Assembly: GCF_003334385.1 (NCBI RefSeq)
Contig: NZ_QOWN01000001.1
From: Escherichia coli
Lineage (GTDB): Bacteria; Pseudomonadota; Gammaproteobacteria; Enterobacterales; Enterobacteriaceae
DNA: 64,000 nucleotides
Reading direction: 5' to 3' (one strand)
The notes beneath the pieces were generated by a model, which saw nothing but the letters and a program-made list of their open reading frames with translations, ran no database searches and was not told the DNA's origin. This document shows positions 19,512 to 57,880 of this stretch, in pieces. Position numbers and translations under genes: made by a program. Each line of letters starts with the position of its first letter. The first letter of the stretch is position 1.

Positions 19512-20759
19512 TTAGCCAAATTTAGGTAACACGTTAAAGACGTTGCCGAACCAGCACAAAATCACGGTTATACCAAAGAGAATGACAATCGCCGGAATAA
19601 GATTGCCGCCCCAGACCGTGAACATCTGATTGGGAAACTTCTTGCGAGCTTTGATTGCAAGCACTGCGGGAATAATGACCGCCCAGATGGTGGCGCACAG
19701 CCCGGCACCGCCGATCCCGTAAATAAAGCCGTTCGGGAAGATCAGATACAACAACGCAGGTGGCAGGAAGGTTAACAGCACGGTTTTGAAACGCCCGCCG
19801 TGGGAGTTATCAATCTTAAACAGGTCCGCCAGATAATCGAACAACCCCAGCGTGACACCAAAGAACGAACTGGCAACAGCTAAGTTAGAGAACACCAGCA
19901 GGCAAAACTCGATAATGCCGTGCTGTTTGGTGCCGAGGAACGATTTCACCAGCGAATCAACGTTGCCGCCTGAGGAGATAATCGCCTTAAAGCTTTCTCG
20001 CGGAATATTCCCCATGGTGCAATAGAGCCAGAAGAGATAAATCACCAGCGCCAGCAGCGAACCAAATACCACGCTTTTGATTAACTTATCTTTGCGTTTT
20101 CCATAGCAAATAATCAGGCTGGGAATATTGCCGTGGAAACCAAATGACGCCAGACACACCGGCAAAGCCATAAAGATATACGGGAAGTAAGACGTTCCCG
20201 CAGTGGAGCTGGTGGCGTCGCGCAGAATGGAGTAATCGACCTGGAAGAAAAAAGAACCAAACACGATCACAAAGGAGATAATCTTCAGCCCGAGGAACAA
20301 TGAGGTAATACGACTGGCGGCTAACGAACTTAACCACAATACGCTGGCAACGAAAATGGCTGTGCAGATCCCGACAATACGTGGATTAGCGTGATAACCC
20401 AAATTCATTGATATCGTTTCACTAATGATCGCACCATTAGCAGAGATATAGGCATAAGTGAGGATATAGAGAACGAAGGCAACGGTAATACCGCTGATAA
20501 TGTTCCAGGTGTTACCGATTAAATCTTTGGTGATGGTGTTAAAACTGGAGCCGACGGGATAATTTAAATTTGCTTCTAATAACAATAACCCGGAATGAAG
20601 CATTGAAAACCAGGCAATGATAAGGATAAAGGCACCCCAGAAAAACCAGGCACCGGCAAGATCAACAGGTAAAGCAAACATACCTCCACCAATTACTGTA
20701 CCTGCTATAACCATAACACCCCAAAATGCAGAGTGCTTTTTTTCAGCTTGATCAGTCAT
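19512..20759 (-). CDS. tnaB: Low-affinity tryptophan permease
   Basis: 415-aa membrane ORF immediately downstream of tnaA; hairpin agaagccagc...gctggcttct at 19478-19505 after the stop. Confidence 0.92.
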   Translation of the reverse strand: MTDQAEKKHSAFWGVMVIAGTVIGGGMFALPVDLAGAWFFWGAFILIIAWFSMLHSGLLLLEANLNYPVGSSFNTITKDLIGNTWNIISGITVAFVLYILTYAYISANGAIISETISMNLGYHANPRIVGICTAIFVASVLWLSSLAASRITSLFLGLKIISFVIVFGSFFFQVDYSILRDATSSTAGTSYFPYIFMALPVCLASFGFHGNIPSLIICYGKRKDKLIKSVVFGSLLALVIYLFWLYCTMGNIPRESFKAIISSGGNVDSLVKSFLGTKQHGIIEFCLLVFSNLAVASSFFGVTLGLFDYLADLFKIDNSHGGRFKTVLLTFLPPALLYLIFPNGFIYGIGGAGLCATIWAVIIPAVLAIKARKKFPNQMFTVWGGNLIPAIVILFGITVILCWFGNVFNVLPKFG

Positions 20760-20849: not shown

Positions 20850-22265
20850 TTAAACTTCTTTAAGTTTTGCGGTGAAGTGACGCAATACTTTCGGTTCGTA
20901 CGTAAAGGTTAATCCTTTAATATTCGCCGCGTTCTCTTTCACATGTTTAAAGGCTTCAATAATGAAGTCCATATGTGTTTGAGTATATGTTGCGCGCGGA
21001 ATGGTTAAACGCAGCAGTTCAGCCGGGCATGGCAGTTGTTTACCGGTTTTCGGATCGCGGCCTAACAGGAAAGAGCCAATTTCTACCGCACGGATACCGG
21101 CGACTTTATACAGCTCGCAGGCCAGCGCCTGTGCCGGGAACTGGTCTGCCGGGATATGCGGCAACAGTTTACCGGCATCAACGAATGCCGCGTGACCGCC
21201 CGCCTGCTGGCAGACAACGCCAATCTCTTCCAGACCATCGACCAGATACTGTACCTGCGCGATACGATAAGCCAGCCAGTCGAGATTCATGCCGTCATAC
21301 AGACCTACCGCCAGACGCTCCATCGCGCCGCCTTCCAGGCCGCCATATGTCGGGAAGCCTTCCTGCACCACGCAAAGGGTTCTGCACTCGGTGTACACAT
21401 CAAAGAAGCTGTCGTCTTTCATGCACAGCAGGCCGCCCATCGGCACCATCGCATCTTTCTTGGCGGACATCGCCAGCATATCGGCATATTTGTAGGTTTC
21501 GCGGGTGATCTGCTCGATGGTCCAGTCTTTGTATTCTGCTTCACGCTGCTTGATGAAATAGGCGTTTTCAGCAAAGCGCGCGGAGTCCATTACCACCGGA
21601 ATATCGTATTTCTTCGCGATGCTGTACATCGCTTTTAAGTTTGCCAGTGAAACCGGCTGACCACCTGCAGAGTTACTGGTGATGGTTGCAACGATATACG
21701 GCACGTTATTCGGACCAACTTCTTCAATACCGCGTTCTAATCCCTCAAGGTCAAAGTTGCCTTTAAAGTCGTAACGCACGCCCGTATCGAAGGCTTCTTT
21801 GATATAGACGTTACGCACGGTACAGCCGTTGATCTGGCTATGGCCCTGCGTGGTATCAAAGAAATAGTTAGAGAACGCCACCATTTTGCTGCGATCCAGG
21901 CCTTTTTCCTGCTCGCGTTTTTTAATCAGTACCGGAATATAGATTTGCTCTGCGCCACGGCCCTGGTGAGTCGGAATGGTGTATTGATAACCAAAGATAT
22001 TTTTCACTGACTCGGCTAACGCATAGTAGCTACGACTGCCGCTGTAGGCTTCGTCGCCGCGCATCATCGCAGCCTGCATGCTCTGCGTCACCGCCCCGGT
22101 GCCGCTGTCGGTCAGTAAATCGATAAACACATCTTCGCTATCCAGCAGGAACGGGTTCATACCGGATTTAATAATTGCCTCTTCACGATAAGCGCGAGTG
22201 GTACGTTTTACTGGCTCAATAACACGAATGCGGAACGGTTCAGGGAGATGTTTAAAGTTTTCCAT
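20850..22265 (-). CDS. tnaA: Tryptophanase (PLP-dependent)
   Basis: 471 aa from ATG at 22265 ([18 protein letters not shown]...); ORF-track start at 22280 adds 5 upstream codons. Confidence 0.95.
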
Positions 22266-22485
22266 TACATAATCCTTCATTTATTTTAATTACAGTGATC
22301 CCTGTGAATATTACATCTGCTATACCGATTAATTCGCCAGATATATATGCAAGCACCATCATTTACTAAAACAAGTAAATAAACGAGAGATGACCTTTGC
22401 AAAAGGCAAAATTAAGATATAGCAAACAAATAGATCACATTGAATCTAATCGGTTTGGCTCTGGTGATGGCTACAGAAGGGCAAA

Positions 22486-22560
22486 TCAAGGGCGGTGATC
22501 GACAATTTTGTTGTCAATATTGAACCATTTTGAGGTCACACATATATGTAAGATATTCAT
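22486..22560 (-). CDS. tnaC: tna operon leader peptide (24 aa)
   Basis: Reverse complement reads ATGAATATCTTACATATATGTGTGACCTCAAAATGGTTCAATATTGACAACAAAATTGTCGATCACCGCCCTTGA = MNILHICVTSKWFNIDNKIVDHRP*; single Trp at codon 12, Pro at codon 24 before the stop. Confidence 0.92.
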   Translation of the reverse strand: MNILHICVTSKWFNIDNKIVDHRP

Positions 22561-22635
22561 AATGCACTTATCCTCGCAAGACACGAGGCTACATTATTAC
22601 ACTCAGAGTTTTTGTCTATTCTGAAATTGTTTAAA

Positions 22636-22651
22636 TGTGAATCGAATCACA
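22636..22651. promoter_or_regulatory. CRP binding site of the tna promoter
   Basis: tgtgaatcgaatcaca: perfect TGTGA-N6-TCACA palindrome about 80 bp upstream of the tnaC start. Confidence 0.8.
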
Positions 22652-22756
22652 ATCGTTCGGGGAGCAATATTAAATGCTTTTTTTAAAGATTATAAATTAC
22701 GTAAGAATTTTAATGTTTAAAAAAAGGGTTGAGGAATAACAGGAGTGGTAACAATG

Positions 22757-22790
22757 AAGCGAAGCCGCATCTGACAGTCAGAATGCGGCT
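22757..22790 (-). terminator. Terminator downstream of mnmE
   Basis: Hairpin gaagccgcat...atgcggcttc just 3' of the mnmE stop. Confidence 0.55.
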
Positions 22791-22802
22791 TCGTAAGCGC
22801 GG

Positions 22803-24167
22803 TTACTTACCAATACAGAAGCTGGAGAAAATCCGCCCCAGCAGGTCGTCTGAAGTAAATTCCCCGGTGATTTCGCTTAAGTTCTGCTGTGCCAGACGCA
22901 ACTCTTCCGCCAGCAGTTCACCTGCCCAGGCTCCCAACAGTTGCGCTTTGCCCTGTTGTAGATGTTCCGCTGCCTGTTCCAGCGCCTGTAGGTGGCGACG
23001 ACGCGCCAGGAAGCCGCCTTCCATGTTGGTGTCAAAGCCCATGCTCTGTTTGAGATGGTTACGCAGCACGTCCACGCCTTCACCAGTCCTTGCCGAGAGA
23101 CGAATTAACGCGTGACCGTTCACTTCACTCATTCCCAGCGTTTCGCCGGTGATATCGGCTTTATTGCGCACCACGGTGATCGGCAGTTTCGCTGGCAGAC
23201 GGGCAATAAATTCCGGCCAGATCTCTGCCGGATCCACGGCGTCTGTTGTGGTGCCATCGACCATAAACAGCACGCGGTCGGCCTGTTCAATTTCCTGCCA
23301 CGCGCGCTCGATACCAATACGTTCTACTTCGTCACTGGCTTCACGTAGCCCGGCGGTATCGATGATATGCAGCGGCATTCCGTCAATGTGGATATGCTCA
23401 CGCAGCACGTCACGCGTAGTTCCGGCGATATCGGTTACGATTGCCGCTTCACGCCCCGCCAGCGCGTTTAACAGGCTCGATTTACCGGCGTTAGGACGTC
23501 CGGCAATCACCACTTTCATCCCTTCGCGCAACAAACTACCCTGACGTGCTTCAGCACGCACTGCATCAAGATCGGCAATAACGTCATTGAGCTGGGCTTC
23601 AATTTTTCCGTCGGAGAGGAAATCGATCTCTTCATCGGGGAAATCAATTGCCGCTTCGACGTAAATGCGCAAGTGGGTGAGGGCTTCTACCAGATGATTA
23701 ACCCGTGCGGAGAATGCGCCTTGCAGCGAGTTAAGTGCCGAACGGGCCGCCTGTTCCGAACTGGCGTCGATAAGATCGGCAATCGCCTCGGCCTGGGCTA
23801 AGTCAAGTTTATCGTTAAGAAACGCGCGTTCGGAAAACTCACCAGGGCGAGCAATCCGCAGGCCGGGAATGGTCAGAATGCGTTTTAACAGCAGGTCGAG
23901 GATCACCGGACCGCCATGACCTTGCAGTTCCAGCACATCTTCGCCGGTGAACGAGTTCGGGCCAGGGAACCATAGCGCAATCCCCTGATCGAGCACGCTG
24001 CCGTCGGCGTCTTTAAACGGAAGATAATCGGCGTAGCGCGGCTTAGGCAGTTTACCCAGCACGGTTTCGGCAACTTCACGGGCTTTGAAGCCGGAGATGC
24101 GCAGGATGCCAACGCCGCCACGTCCCGGAGGCGTGGCCTGGGCTACGATAGTGTCATTATCGCTCAT
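22803..24167 (-). CDS. mnmE: tRNA modification GTPase MnmE (TrmE)
   Basis: 454 aa; G-domain motifs GRPNAGKSS and DTAG; C-terminal ...CIGK. Confidence 0.95.
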
Positions 24168-24272: not shown

Positions 24273-25919
24273 TCAGGATTTTTTCTTCTCGCGGCTATGC
24301 AGGCCACGTTTTTCCAGACCACGGTAAATCAGCTGCTGCTGAATAATGGTTACCAGGTTGCTGACGATATAGTACAGCACCAGACCTGACGGGAACCACA
24401 GGAAGAACACGGCGAAGATGACCGGCATAAAGGTCATGATCTTCTGCTGCATCGGGTCGGTCACTGTGGTCGGCGACATCTTCTGAATGAAGAACATCGT
24501 TACGCCCATCAGGATCGGCAGGATGTAGTACGGGTCCTGTGCCGACAGGTCGTGGATCCACAGTGCAAACGGTGCCTGACGCAGTTCAACGGAACCCATC
24601 AGCATGTAGTACAACGCCAGGAAGATTGGCATCTGGATCAGCAGCGGGAAGCAGCCGCCCAGCGGGTTAACCTTCTCAGCTTTGTACAGCGCCATCATTT
24701 CCTGGCTGATACGCTGTTTGTCATCGCCCAGACGCTCACGCATTGCCTGAATCTTCGGCTGCAACATACGCATCTTCGCCATGGAGGTGTACTGCGCTTT
24801 GGTCAGCGGGTACATGATGCCACGAACGATAAAGGTGATGATGATAATGGAGAAGCCCCAGTTACCCACAAAGCTATGGATCCATTTCAGCAGTTTGAAC
24901 AGCGGCTGAGAGATGAACCACAACCAACCGTAATCAACGGTCAGATCCAGGTGCGGAGCAACAGCTGCCATTTTGTCCTGGATTTCCGGGCCAACCCACA
25001 GGGTGCTGTTCATCGCGCCAGTCTGACCAGGCTGAACCAGTACCGGCTGAGATTTATAGCCGATAGCGGCGATGCCGTTACCCAGATTAGCGGTATAGAA
25101 GTTGTTGGTACCGTCGTTATGCGGGATCCACGCCGTCGCGAAATACTGTTGCAGCATCGCCACCCAACCACCTTTCGAAGAGATGTTCAGGTTTTCGTTA
25201 TCGGCAATGGTATCGAACTTGTATTTCTCATACTTCTCGTCAGGCGTGGAGTACGCCGCGCCACGGAAGGTGTGCAGTGCGAAGTTGCTGCTTCCGGTAT
25301 CGAGATGCGGTGGCAGAGTGATGGATTGCTTCAACTGACCAAACGAGGAGATTTCCAGCGGTTTCTCGCCAGCGTTCTGCACGTTGTAGTTGACGTTGAC
25401 AGCGTAATCACCACGTTTCAGGACAAACGTTTTGGTAAACGTGTTGCCTGCCGCGTCGGTATACGTCATCGGCACCTGCAGTTCGTTTTGACCTTCAGCC
25501 AGCACATAAGCGTCTTTTTCAACGTTATACAGCGGACGCGGGCCGTTAGCCGGGTTATCCGGGCCATCACGACCGGTCAGACCGCTCTGTGCCTGATAAA
25601 TAAACTGCGGTGAAGTTTCCAACAGCTGGAACGGCTGGGTAGAGTTCAGCTCTTTCGGGTAAGCAGGCAGCAGAGCTTGCTCAACATCACCACCACGGGT
25701 GTTGATGGTCAGATCAAGCACGTCGGTCTTAACCGAGATCAGTTTCCCCTGGCCACTGGCCGGTACGCCCTGGTCGGCGGCGCTACCCGCTGCGGTGGTC
25801 GTTGTCTGCGTGGTCTGTTGGGCCTGAGGTTGCGGGTTTTTATCCTGCTCCCAGGCTTGCCAGATCATGAAAGACACGAACAGCAAAGCGATGACTAAAA
25901 GATTGCGTTGCGAATCCAT
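24273..25919 (-). CDS. yidC: Membrane protein insertase YidC
   Basis: 548 aa; N-terminal TM segment, large periplasmic domain, C-terminal polytopic core; rpmH-rnpA-yidD-yidC-mnmE cluster. Confidence 0.95.
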
Positions 25920-26671: not shown

Positions 26672-27047
26672 CTAAACTTGAATAAATTCAATGGCTTTAT
26701 TGGATATCCGCCGAAAAATGAAACGATGGACACCGAAGCCATGGGTGATTAAAGAGGCCGGATTGTAATAATTGTACACTCCGGAGTCAATTCTCTTTCC
26801 TTATTTACCGCGCTTTTCCGCACCTTTTCGCAGGGAAAATGTACGACCTCACACCAGTGGAAACCAGCATGGCGCGCCGGGTGGAGGATTATACGGGCTG
26901 ATGGGTAAAGCGCAAGGATCGTCCTGGATCTTTATTAGATCGATTAAGCCAATTTTTGTCTATGGTCATTAAATTTTCCAATATGCGGCGTAAATCGTGC
27001 CCGCCTCGCGGCGGGATCGTTTACACTTAGCGAGTTCTGGAAAGTCC

Positions 27048-27265: not shown

Positions 27266-28669
27266 GTGTCACTTTCGCTTTGGCAGCAGTGTCTTGCCCG
27301 ATTGCAGGATGAGTTACCAGCCACAGAATTCAGTATGTGGATACGCCCATTGCAGGCGGAACTGAGCGATAACACGCTGGCCCTGTACGCGCCAAACCGT
27401 TTTGTCCTCGATTGGGTACGGGACAAGTACCTTAATAATATCAATGGACTGCTAACCAGTTTCTGCGGAGCGGATGCCCCACAGCTGCGTTTTGAAGTCG
27501 GCACCAAACCGGTGACGCAAACGCCACAAGCGGCAGTGACGAGCAACGTCGCGGCCCCTGCACAGGTGGCGCAAACGCAGCCGCAACGTGCTGCGCCTTC
27601 TACGCGCTCAGGTTGGGATAACGTCCCGGCCCCGGCAGAACCGACCTATCGTTCTAACGTAAACGTCAAACACACGTTTGATAACTTCGTTGAAGGTAAA
27701 TCTAACCAACTGGCGCGCGCGGCGGCTCGCCAGGTGGCGGATAACCCTGGCGGTGCCTATAACCCGTTGTTCCTTTATGGCGGCACGGGTCTGGGTAAAA
27801 CTCACCTGCTGCATGCGGTGGGTAACGGCATTATGGCGCGCAAGCCGAATGCCAAAGTGGTTTATATGCACTCCGAGCGCTTTGTTCAGGACATGGTTAA
27901 AGCCCTGCAAAACAACGCGATCGAAGAGTTTAAACGCTACTACCGTTCCGTAGATGCACTGCTGATCGACGATATTCAGTTTTTTGCTAATAAAGAACGA
28001 TCTCAGGAAGAGTTTTTCCACACCTTCAACGCCCTGCTGGAAGGTAATCAACAGATCATTCTCACCTCGGATCGCTATCCGAAAGAGATCAACGGCGTTG
28101 AGGATCGTTTGAAATCCCGCTTCGGTTGGGGACTGACTGTGGCGATCGAACCGCCAGAGCTGGAAACCCGTGTGGCGATCCTGATGAAAAAGGCCGACGA
28201 AAACGACATTCGTTTGCCGGGCGAAGTGGCGTTCTTTATCGCCAAGCGTCTACGATCTAACGTACGTGAGCTGGAAGGGGCGCTGAACCGCGTCATTGCC
28301 AATGCCAACTTTACCGGACGGGCGATCACCATCGACTTCGTGCGTGAGGCGCTGCGCGACTTGCTGGCATTGCAGGAAAAACTGGTCACCATCGACAATA
28401 TTCAGAAGACGGTGGCGGAGTACTACAAGATCAAAGTCGCGGATCTCCTTTCCAAGCGTCGATCCCGCTCGGTGGCGCGTCCGCGCCAGATGGCGATGGC
28501 GCTGGCGAAAGAGCTGACTAACCACAGTCTGCCGGAGATTGGCGATGCGTTTGGTGGCCGTGACCACACGACGGTGCTTCATGCCTGCCGTAAGATCGAG
28601 CAGTTGCGTGAAGAGAGCCACGATATCAAAGAAGATTTTTCAAATTTAATCAGAACATTGTCATCGTAA
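27266..28669 (+). CDS. dnaA: Chromosomal replication initiator DnaA
   Basis: 467 aa from GTG at 27266 ([16 protein letters not shown]...); AAA+ Walker [11 protein letters not shown] and C-terminal DNA-binding domain. Confidence 0.95.
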
Positions 28670-33311: not shown

Positions 33312-33410
33312 GCCTGATGCGCTACGCTTATCAGGCCTACGAAAATCTTGCAATGTATTGAATTTTCATGATTTTGTAGGCCGGATAAGGCGTTCACGCC
33401 GCATCCGGCA
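33312..33410. repeat. BIME: two inverted REP elements downstream of gyrB
   Basis: 33312-33340 gcctgatgcgctacgcttatcaggcctac and 33376-33410 gtaggccggataaggcgttcacgccgcatccggca in opposite orientation. Confidence 0.8.
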
Positions 33411-43470: not shown

Positions 43471-43572
43471 TACATCGTAGCCGATGAGGACGCGCCTGAT
43501 GGGTGTTCTGGCTACCTGACCTGTCCATTGTGGAAGGTCTTACATTCTCGCTGATTTCAGGAGCTATTGATT

Positions 43573-43986
43573 ATGCGTAACTTTGATTTATCCCCGCTTT
43601 ACCGTTCTGCTATTGGATTTGACCGTTTGTTTAACCACTTAGAAAACAACCAGAGCCAGAGTAATGGCGGCTACCCTCCGTATAACGTTGAACTGGTAGA
43701 CGAAAACCATTACCGCATTGCTATCGCTGTGGCTGGTTTTGCTGAGAGCGAACTGGAAATTACCGCCCAGGATAATCTGCTGGTGGTGAAAGGTGCTCAC
43801 GCCGACGAACAAAAAGAGCGCACCTATCTGTACCAGGGCATCGCTGAACGCAACTTTGAACGCAAATTCCAGTTAGCTGAGAACATTCATGTTCGTGGTG
43901 CTAACCTGGTAAATGGTTTGCTGTATATCGATCTCGAACGCGTGATTCCGGAAGCGAAAAAACCGCGCCGTATCGAAATCAACTAA
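43573..43986 (+). CDS. ibpA: Small heat-shock protein IbpA
   Basis: 137 aa from ATG at 43573 ([20 protein letters not shown]...); alpha-crystallin domain. Confidence 0.95.
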
Positions 43987-47096: not shown

Positions 47097-47165
47097 CTCT
47101 AGATCTCTTTTTTGCCTGCAAGCCCGGGTAATGCGCACACAAGTTCTGCTTAATCGATTGAAAAA

Positions 47166-47186
47166 ACATCTTTTTTTTAAAGATGT
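47166..47186. promoter_or_regulatory. Perfect palindrome in the yidP-glv divergent promoter region (candidate operator)
   Basis: acatcttt-ttttt-aaagatgt: 8-bp arms with a 5-bp spacer. Confidence 0.5.
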
Positions 47187-47391
47187 GTTCGATGCTGTGT
47201 ACCTGTGCTCACAGAGGTCTACTTTTTCGCGAAAACGTAGATCTCTACCGCCCAACGAAAAGCATGAAAGCGATCACGAATCCCATTGGGTCGTCATGTT
47301 CTGCCGATCGCATCTTCCTATCCTCGCTCCAGGCCTGCCGCATAACCAATCAGGCTTCCTACTTACAGAATTGAGAAAAGAGGATGTGGAA

Positions 47392-50712
<3,321 letters not shown>

Positions 50713-57739: not shown

Positions 57740-57880
57740 ACTAAATACGTCAAAATTCGTGCCGAAATTGCGCGTTCTGCGCGGAACACGTATACTTTCA
57801 GTGTTGACATAATACAGTGTGCTTTGCGGTTACCAGCCGCAGGCGACTGACGAAACCTCGCTCCGGCGGGGTTTTTTGTT
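57740..57880 (+). ncRNA. istR: IstR antitoxin sRNA (IstR-2 about 140 nt; IstR-1 is the 3' roughly 75 nt from about 57805); ends approximate
   Basis: Transcribed divergently from tisAB; 57803-57829 (gttgacataatacagtgtgctttgcgg) nearly repeats 57545-57572 in the tisAB leader, making the sRNA complementary to the minus-strand mRNA; T-run at 57871-57877. Confidence 0.6.

Follow-up and report, generated by a model that had tools for sequence, protein, structure and literature searches.

The trpL and tnaC genes encode short leader peptides with Trp codons, which link translation to the termination of transcription upstream of genes related to tryptophan. The tna leader has become a paradigm both of nascent peptides that sense a ligand and of attenuation by Rho, as well as a synthetic-biology part in wide reuse. 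The mechanism of tna regulation has been established experimentally (PMC8429421, PMC12360218), and so has the catabolite repression of tna transcription in Escherichia coli K-12 (PMC8429421). A shared logic is found in the ornithine-sensing speFL-speF leader, where a small-molecule-dependent ribosome stall on a short upstream open reading frame (ORF) likewise masks a Rho utilisation (rut) region and blocks premature Rho termination (PMC12360218).

Here, we describe the region upstream of tnaA in a 64-kb stretch of the E. coli chromosome, the whole of which is referred to below as the window. We are nearly certain that this is the native region controlling the tnaCAB operon in E. coli, with a two-layer control formed by CRP-dependent initiation and Trp/Rho attenuation. 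An initial annotation of the same DNA had read it as a tna leader with a CRP site, where Rho-dependent termination would be relieved by Trp-induced ribosome stalling; the sequence supports this reading, and no sequence evidence contradicting a tnaCAB leader was found in it. The positions of the elements, their integrity, the identity with K-12, the constraint among strains, and the protein families come from our own analysis, whereas CRP dependence, Rho action, and Trp-induced stalling are taken from the literature. The feature is an already known, ordinary, textbook one, and no open question is made more testable by its finding. Its value lies only in having the annotation right: present in the window is an indole switch, intact and identical to that of K-12, which responds to tryptophan and glucose.

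Organization of the tna operon in the window

All the tna elements are located on the minus strand of the window, and the gene order is mnmE-tnaC-tnaA-tnaB-mdtL, as in the RefSeq annotation. On this strand, tnaA (22265..20850) and tnaB (20759..19512) lie downstream of tnaC (22560..22486). Following the direction of transcription, the elements are the following:

22803, minus strand: stop codon of mnmE, whose 3' end comes first in strand order, ahead of a hairpin (22793..22760), an AT-rich stretch, the CRP site, tnaC, the spacer, and tnaA
22636..22651, minus strand: cAMP-CRP binding site, reading TGTGATTCGATTCACA, with both core pentamers perfect
22591..22618, minus strand: weak sigma-70 core promoter tnaCp, with a -35-like TAGACA (22618..22613), a 16-nt spacer, and a -10 TAATGT (22596..22591)
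22584, minus strand: transcription start site (TSS), +1 = G, the 5'-RACE start of PMC2760140 transferred to window coordinates
22486..22560, minus strand: tnaC, 24 codons and a TGA stop (RefSeq tnaC, WP_001364348.1), with its Shine-Dalgarno GAGGA at 22575..22571
22486..22494, minus strand: boxA-like CGCCCTTGA, overlapping tnaC codons 23-24 and the stop (CGC CCT TGA), same as in K-12
22431..22485, minus strand: rut region, C-rich and G-poor, beginning directly past the tnaC stop
22266..22485, minus strand: transcribed tnaC-tnaA spacer of 220 nt, with the tnaA Shine-Dalgarno AAGGA at 22277..22273
20850..22265, minus strand: tnaA, tryptophanase, 471 aa (TIGR02617, 1010 bits; cut-off 825.8)
19512..20759, minus strand: tnaB, low-affinity tryptophan permease, 415 aa (NF007235, 925 bits; cut-off 497)

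The family membership of TnaC, TnaA, and TnaB was judged by the NCBIfam equivalog cut-offs, and all three proteins exceed them. In the case of TnaC, the score with the model TIGR02616 (tnaC_leader) is 44.3 bits, with a cut-off of 23.55.

The start of tnaA is the ATG at 22265 in RefSeq (MENFKHL...). A mechanical list of ORFs extends the gene to an in-frame ATG at 22280 (MKDYVMENF...), which overlaps the tnaA Shine-Dalgarno. This extended start is probably the reason why the initial annotation began its range at 22281. That range (22281-22700) includes all of the CRP site and of tnaC, together with most of the spacer, and to this extent it stands; the final 15 nt before the tnaA ATG fall outside it, and with them the tnaA Shine-Dalgarno, and the strand had been left unstated.

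The region is preceded by a hairpin located 10 nt past the mnmE stop (22760-22793, minus strand). It has 15 predicted pairs and a predicted energy of -23.9 kcal/mol (z = -4.9), and none of 200 shuffles was as stable. The hairpin is not followed by a U tract. Its role may be that of a 3'-end or stability element of mnmE, insulating tnaCp from upstream transcription.

The tnaC promoter and its CRP site

The motif TGTGA-N6-TCACA has a single perfect match in the whole window, with 0.07 expected and at least one match in 6 of 100 shuffles. The perfect CRP site that had been placed about 80 bp upstream of tnaC is indeed found there, its near edge being 75 bp and its centre 83.5 bp from the tnaC ATG. 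Supplement file 6 of PMC2760140 gives the 24-mer ACGATTGTGATTCGATTCACATTT as the tnaC CRP site, and the identical 24-mer is present here. The tnaC promoter has also been used to illustrate the Class I type of CRP promoter (PMC5957442).

In supplement file 3 of PMC2760140, 5'-RACE places the start of tnaC transcription at -24, the same as for the known tnaCp, and 454 sequencing places it at -23. Taking the former, the transcribed leader up to the tnaA ATG would add up to 24 + 75 + 220 = 319 nt, a length that we derived from this start and of which our literature searches found no explicit statement. The centre of the CRP site (22643.5) is then located at -59.5 with respect to the 5'-RACE start or at -60.5 with respect to the 454 start, 1-2 bp from the canonical -61.5. 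The site lies upstream of the -35 region, without overlapping it, and is in Class I position, centred near -60.

The best reading of the core promoter is TAGACA-16-TAATGT, with five of six and three of six matches, respectively. An alternative -10, AATAAT (22598..22593), overlaps TAATGT, and the -35 box of tnaC is given as GAATAGACA in PMC2760140. A consensus scan of the minus strand returned no strong or consensus-grade sigma-70 promoter, which is to be expected since the promoter is activator-dependent. Transcription from this weak sigma-70 promoter (+1 at 22584) would depend on cAMP-CRP bound at 22636-22651, through Class I activation, and the operon would be off in glucose because of this dependence.

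A DNA inverted repeat, CCTCG-N7-CGAGG (22572-22588, minus strand), straddles the +1 at 22584 and includes the tnaC Shine-Dalgarno, its arms being nearly conserved across the alleles described below. Read as a hairpin of the 5'-UTR (22588..22572), it would have an energy of -8.6 kcal/mol and would occlude the tnaC Shine-Dalgarno. We rejected it as an RNA element, since the mapped +1 leaves four of the five left-arm bases untranscribed. The repeat could be a protein-binding site or a coincidence.

The leader peptide, the rut region, and the spacer

The translation of tnaC is MNILHICVTSKWFNIDNKIVDHRP, with the UGA stop directly after Pro24. The 24-codon gene with Trp12, Pro24, and then a stop, as the initial annotation had it, is recovered, the three codons being TGG, CCT, and TGA. 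The functional residues Trp12, Asp16, Ile19, and Pro24 are all present; the critical residues of TnaC are listed in PMC8429421. A 24-codon ORF is not informative by itself, as the 7 kb around it are overlapped by 103 ORFs with 20 aa or more. At the end of tnaC, we take the boxA to extend over CGCCCTTGA at 22494..22486. A role for the tna boxA was reportedly described by Konan and Yanofsky in 2000.

The 40-nt intervals with the highest C excess in the leader are 22500-22461 (15 C and 7 G) and 22480-22441 (13 C and 6 G), and the spacer turns U-rich further downstream. The rut site has been defined in K-12, where it is adjacent to the tnaC stop codon (PMC8429421, PMC9071393). As far as base composition can tell, the C excess fits a rut that would start at the tnaC stop, close enough to it for masking by a stalled ribosome.

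The scan for intrinsic terminators gave none in the leader, its two matches being both within the 3' end of mnmE. Rfam, which is without a model of this leader, returned no RNA family at the leader, either in a permissive search of 21800-23200 or in one of the whole window at the gathering threshold. The fold predicted for the leader RNA (minimum free energy of -76.2 kcal/mol, z = -1.57) is not significant, with 7 of 100 shuffles folding as well. Such a weak structure is expected for a Rho-dependent leader with an unstructured rut region, and adds no support. Taken together, the lack of an intrinsic terminator and of a structured leader RNA is consistent with a factor-dependent termination.

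At low levels of free tryptophan, the ribosome would terminate at the tnaC UGA and depart, exposing the C-rich rut after the stop. Rho would then load on the exposed rut and terminate the RNA polymerase paused in the 220-nt spacer; as a result of this termination, tnaA and tnaB would remain untranscribed. At high levels of tryptophan, one L-Trp would be held in the exit tunnel, between the A752:U2609 pair of the 23S rRNA and the residues Trp12, Ile15, and Asp16 of TnaC. With this L-Trp bound and Pro24 in the P site, the release of TnaC-tRNA(Pro) by RF2 would be blocked. The stalled ribosome would cover the boxA and the rut, Rho loading would be prevented, and transcription would run on into tnaA and tnaB. 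We infer the Trp-blocked RF2 release and the Rho termination without tryptophan for this strain from its sequence identity with K-12.

The distance between tnaC and the tnaA ATG, previously estimated at about 220 nt, is exactly 220 nt from the stop to the ATG at 22265, and the same length is given for the spacer in PMC7186457. This spacer may have further roles. It is possible, even though we consider it rather less probable than not, that it works mainly as a post-transcriptional platform, where the binding of ribosomal protein L4 and the pairing of the sRNA Spot 42 lower the translation or the mRNA of tnaA, Rho attenuation being one layer of several. This would complement the main explanation and would not exclude it. 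L4 does bind the spacer and lowers TnaA translation; however, its repression survives the deletion of either spacer half, so that no discrete site is defined (PMC7186457). In PMC5748587, overexpressed Spot 42 represses a tnaA'-'lacZ fusion carrying only the spacer, and a 15-nt Spot 42 site is reported. When spf from MG1655 was paired with our leader, the best duplex energies were no better than those of shuffled targets, 128 and 33 of which, out of 300 trials each, were at least as good. The longest complementary runs were of 8-11 nt with several G-U pairs, and no distinctive site was localised among them. Natural variation gives the platform some weight, since the last 55 nt before the tnaA ATG (two of 55 variable) are under more constraint than a ribosome-binding site alone would need. 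Nevertheless, L4 and Spot 42 would act as modulators on top of the Trp/Rho switch, not as substitutes for it, and the two-layer control by CRP and by Trp/Rho attenuation is the reading that we maintain.

Strain variation and comparison with known systems

The initial annotation had described all elements as intact, and the comparison with K-12 bears this out. The region 22200-22830 is 100% identical to K-12 MG1655, C600, J53, and ATCC 8739, and codons 12 and 24 of tnaC, as well as the CRP site, are exactly those of the functional reference. There is no difference from NC_000913.3 between window positions 22129 and 24412. The whole window corresponds, end to end and as the reverse complement, to NC_000913.3 3,846,995-3,910,994, with 10 substitutions and no indels, none of them in the control region. 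The source of the DNA is thus a very close K-12 relative, and not MG1655 itself.

These 10 differences raise the question of an operon whose control region is intact and whose function is altered by changes nearby, with an indole production unlike that of K-12. We regard this as very improbable. The differences closest to the control region are one in tnaA (22128) and one in yidC (24413), 1.85 kb upstream. However, the first is synonymous (V46, GTT>GTG), so that the TnaA protein is that of MG1655, and it is common to E. coli C, which differs here from the window only at 24413 and 27013. The second sits in a separate upstream gene, and tnaC, tnaB with its protein, mnmE, the promoter, and the leader are all identical to MG1655.

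In order to describe natural variation, we compared nine alleles, namely the one in the window and eight sampled down the identity range, spanning about 94-100% identity, and counted the variable positions per segment:

CRP 16-mer: 0 of 16 variable (nine alleles)
74 nt directly upstream of the CRP site: 66% variable (nine alleles)
Spacer nt 1-55 (rut end): 5% variable, 3 of 55 (nine alleles)
Spacer nt 56-165 (middle): 16% variable (nine alleles)
Spacer nt 166-220 (tnaA end): 4% variable, 2 of 55 (nine alleles)

The nine alleles all encode the TnaC protein WP_001364348.1 and have a spacer of 220 nt. The five variable sense-codon sites of tnaC are all synonymous and none is non-synonymous, a pattern with a probability of about 2e-4 under no constraint, or of about 3e-3 when only transitions are counted. 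In the promoter, TAGACA is invariant, and the -10 region occurs in two allelic forms, AATAATGT in the K-12-type allele present here and TATACTGT in most other lineages, both with A2 and T6. This pattern agrees with the prediction of the known mechanism: the constrained parts are the CRP site, the TnaC sequence, the length of the spacer, and both of its ends, next to the rut and at the tnaA ribosome-binding region.

Three of the alleles (M15, 95_0274, and OkiPb01701) have TAA instead of TGA as the tnaC stop (window position 22487), plus a G>A change 5 nt later. The TAA stop alters the boxA-like CGCCCTTGA in these strains. Since TAA is read by RF2 and also by RF1, their induction characteristics could differ. 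As for the allele in the window, its K-12-type -10, its UGA stop, and its own spacer middle might give it a basal or induced indole output measurably unlike that of other E. coli lineages, which we consider doubtful. If true, the tna leader would not be a fixed switch, and its tuning would differ between lineages.

The idea that both the short ORF and the palindrome arose by chance in AT-rich intergenic DNA, with no regulatory role, can be practically dismissed: short ORFs are certainly common around the site and the consensus promoter scan was empty on the minus strand, but the CRP motif is a rare one (0.07 expected per window) and is invariant next to a highly variable upstream flank, the TnaC peptide is invariant with synonymous changes only and passes its equivalog model, and the identity with the experimentally characterised K-12 locus, where mutants of tnaC and of the CRP site do have a phenotype (PMC8429421 and the work cited in it), refutes it.

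The 406-nt core of the region (22260-22665) is present in 5,394 of 5,426 complete E. coli genomes, at a coverage of at least 80% and with 90-100% identity, and the longer query of 631 nt (22200-22830) reaches a coverage of at least 80% in only 4,629 of 5,420. This last figure is probably due to a loss of homology just upstream of the CRP site. In some lineages, represented by two of the sampled alleles, the homology to the window stops 3-5 bp upstream of the site (window position 22652 and upstream). An example is E. coli strain 144 (NZ_CP028603.1, L017 1-892), where the neighbour is not mnmE but a frameshifted type III effector of the ShET2/EspL2 family; in other strains, a pathogenicity-island junction adjoins the CRP site. 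The CRP site marks the edge of the conserved tna module. Another type of rearrangement is found in at least seven otherwise identical genomes, such as that of E. coli E70 (NZ_CM173937.1, L003 829-1526), which carry an IS1 inside the tnaC-tnaA spacer. This insertion should uncouple tnaA from the Trp/Rho switch.

Elsewhere in the window, the substitution at 24413 (yidC codon 503, minus strand) changes ACC to GCC, and thereby Thr503 of YidC to Ala, relative to E. coli C as well as to MG1655. When 5,425 complete E. coli genomes were searched with an 81-nt query that has this site at its centre, none gave an exact match, all of them having at least one mismatch. As YidC is an essential membrane insertase, T503A is either a variant private to this DNA, or the product of a sequencing error, or a change that was introduced. 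The substitution at 27013 (A>G vs MG1655) is located between dnaA and rpmH, at a distance of 253 bp upstream from the dnaA start (27266, plus strand). It turns CCCGCC-TCGC-GGCAGG into the perfect inverted repeat CCCGCC-TCGC-GGCGGG, which adjoins a GATC and is followed, about 40 bp downstream, by the DnaA box TGTGGATAA of the dnaA promoter region, and it was found in only one of 5,426 genomes (strain SCU-104). With two substitutions that are private or nearly so, we rejected an exact match of the window to a sequenced strain. At 48496, the TAG stop of MG1655 glvC is CAG (Gln) in the window, so that glvC and glvB form one continuous ORF (47131..49008, plus strand) ending at the glvB stop. The PTS IIC and IIB genes, split in MG1655, are therefore fused in this strain. 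The other substitutions with respect to MG1655 (63888, 59918, 55605, 51505, 30727, and 4946) affect uhpT, a gene cut by the window end, ilvN (H6Y), and yidF (E74D), or are synonymous in yidK, recF, and bglG. The Rfam search of the window at gathering score gave the following matches, which are all expected for this part of the E. coli chromosome:

57748-57877, plus strand: istR, antitoxin sRNA of tisB
27776-27856, minus strand: AsdA, antisense RNA of dnaA mRNA
43507-43579, plus strand: ROSE_2 thermometer upstream of ibpA
33333-33375, minus strand: ES036 sRNA

Compared with the known systems, the locus resembles Class I CRP promoters, such as lac P1, in having one CRP site, both of whose core pentamers are perfect, placed upstream of a weak core promoter and centred about 60 bp from +1, the difference being a centre at -59.5 (or -60.5) instead of -61.5. 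The likeness to speFL-speF, a system that we compared from the literature only, is limited to the logic, as the peptide, the ligand (ornithine vs tryptophan), and the operon differ and there is no sequence relationship. In trpL, charged tRNA(Trp) is sensed by means of an intrinsic terminator and alternative RNA hairpins, whereas the signal for tnaC is free L-Trp in the ribosome tunnel and the terminator under its control is Rho-dependent. This difference is consistent with a tna leader that lacks an intrinsic terminator or a significant RNA structure. With respect to the tnaCAB leader of E. coli K-12, nothing differs in the control region: the sequence (22200-22830), the gene order, and the TSS-to-ATG distances are the same.
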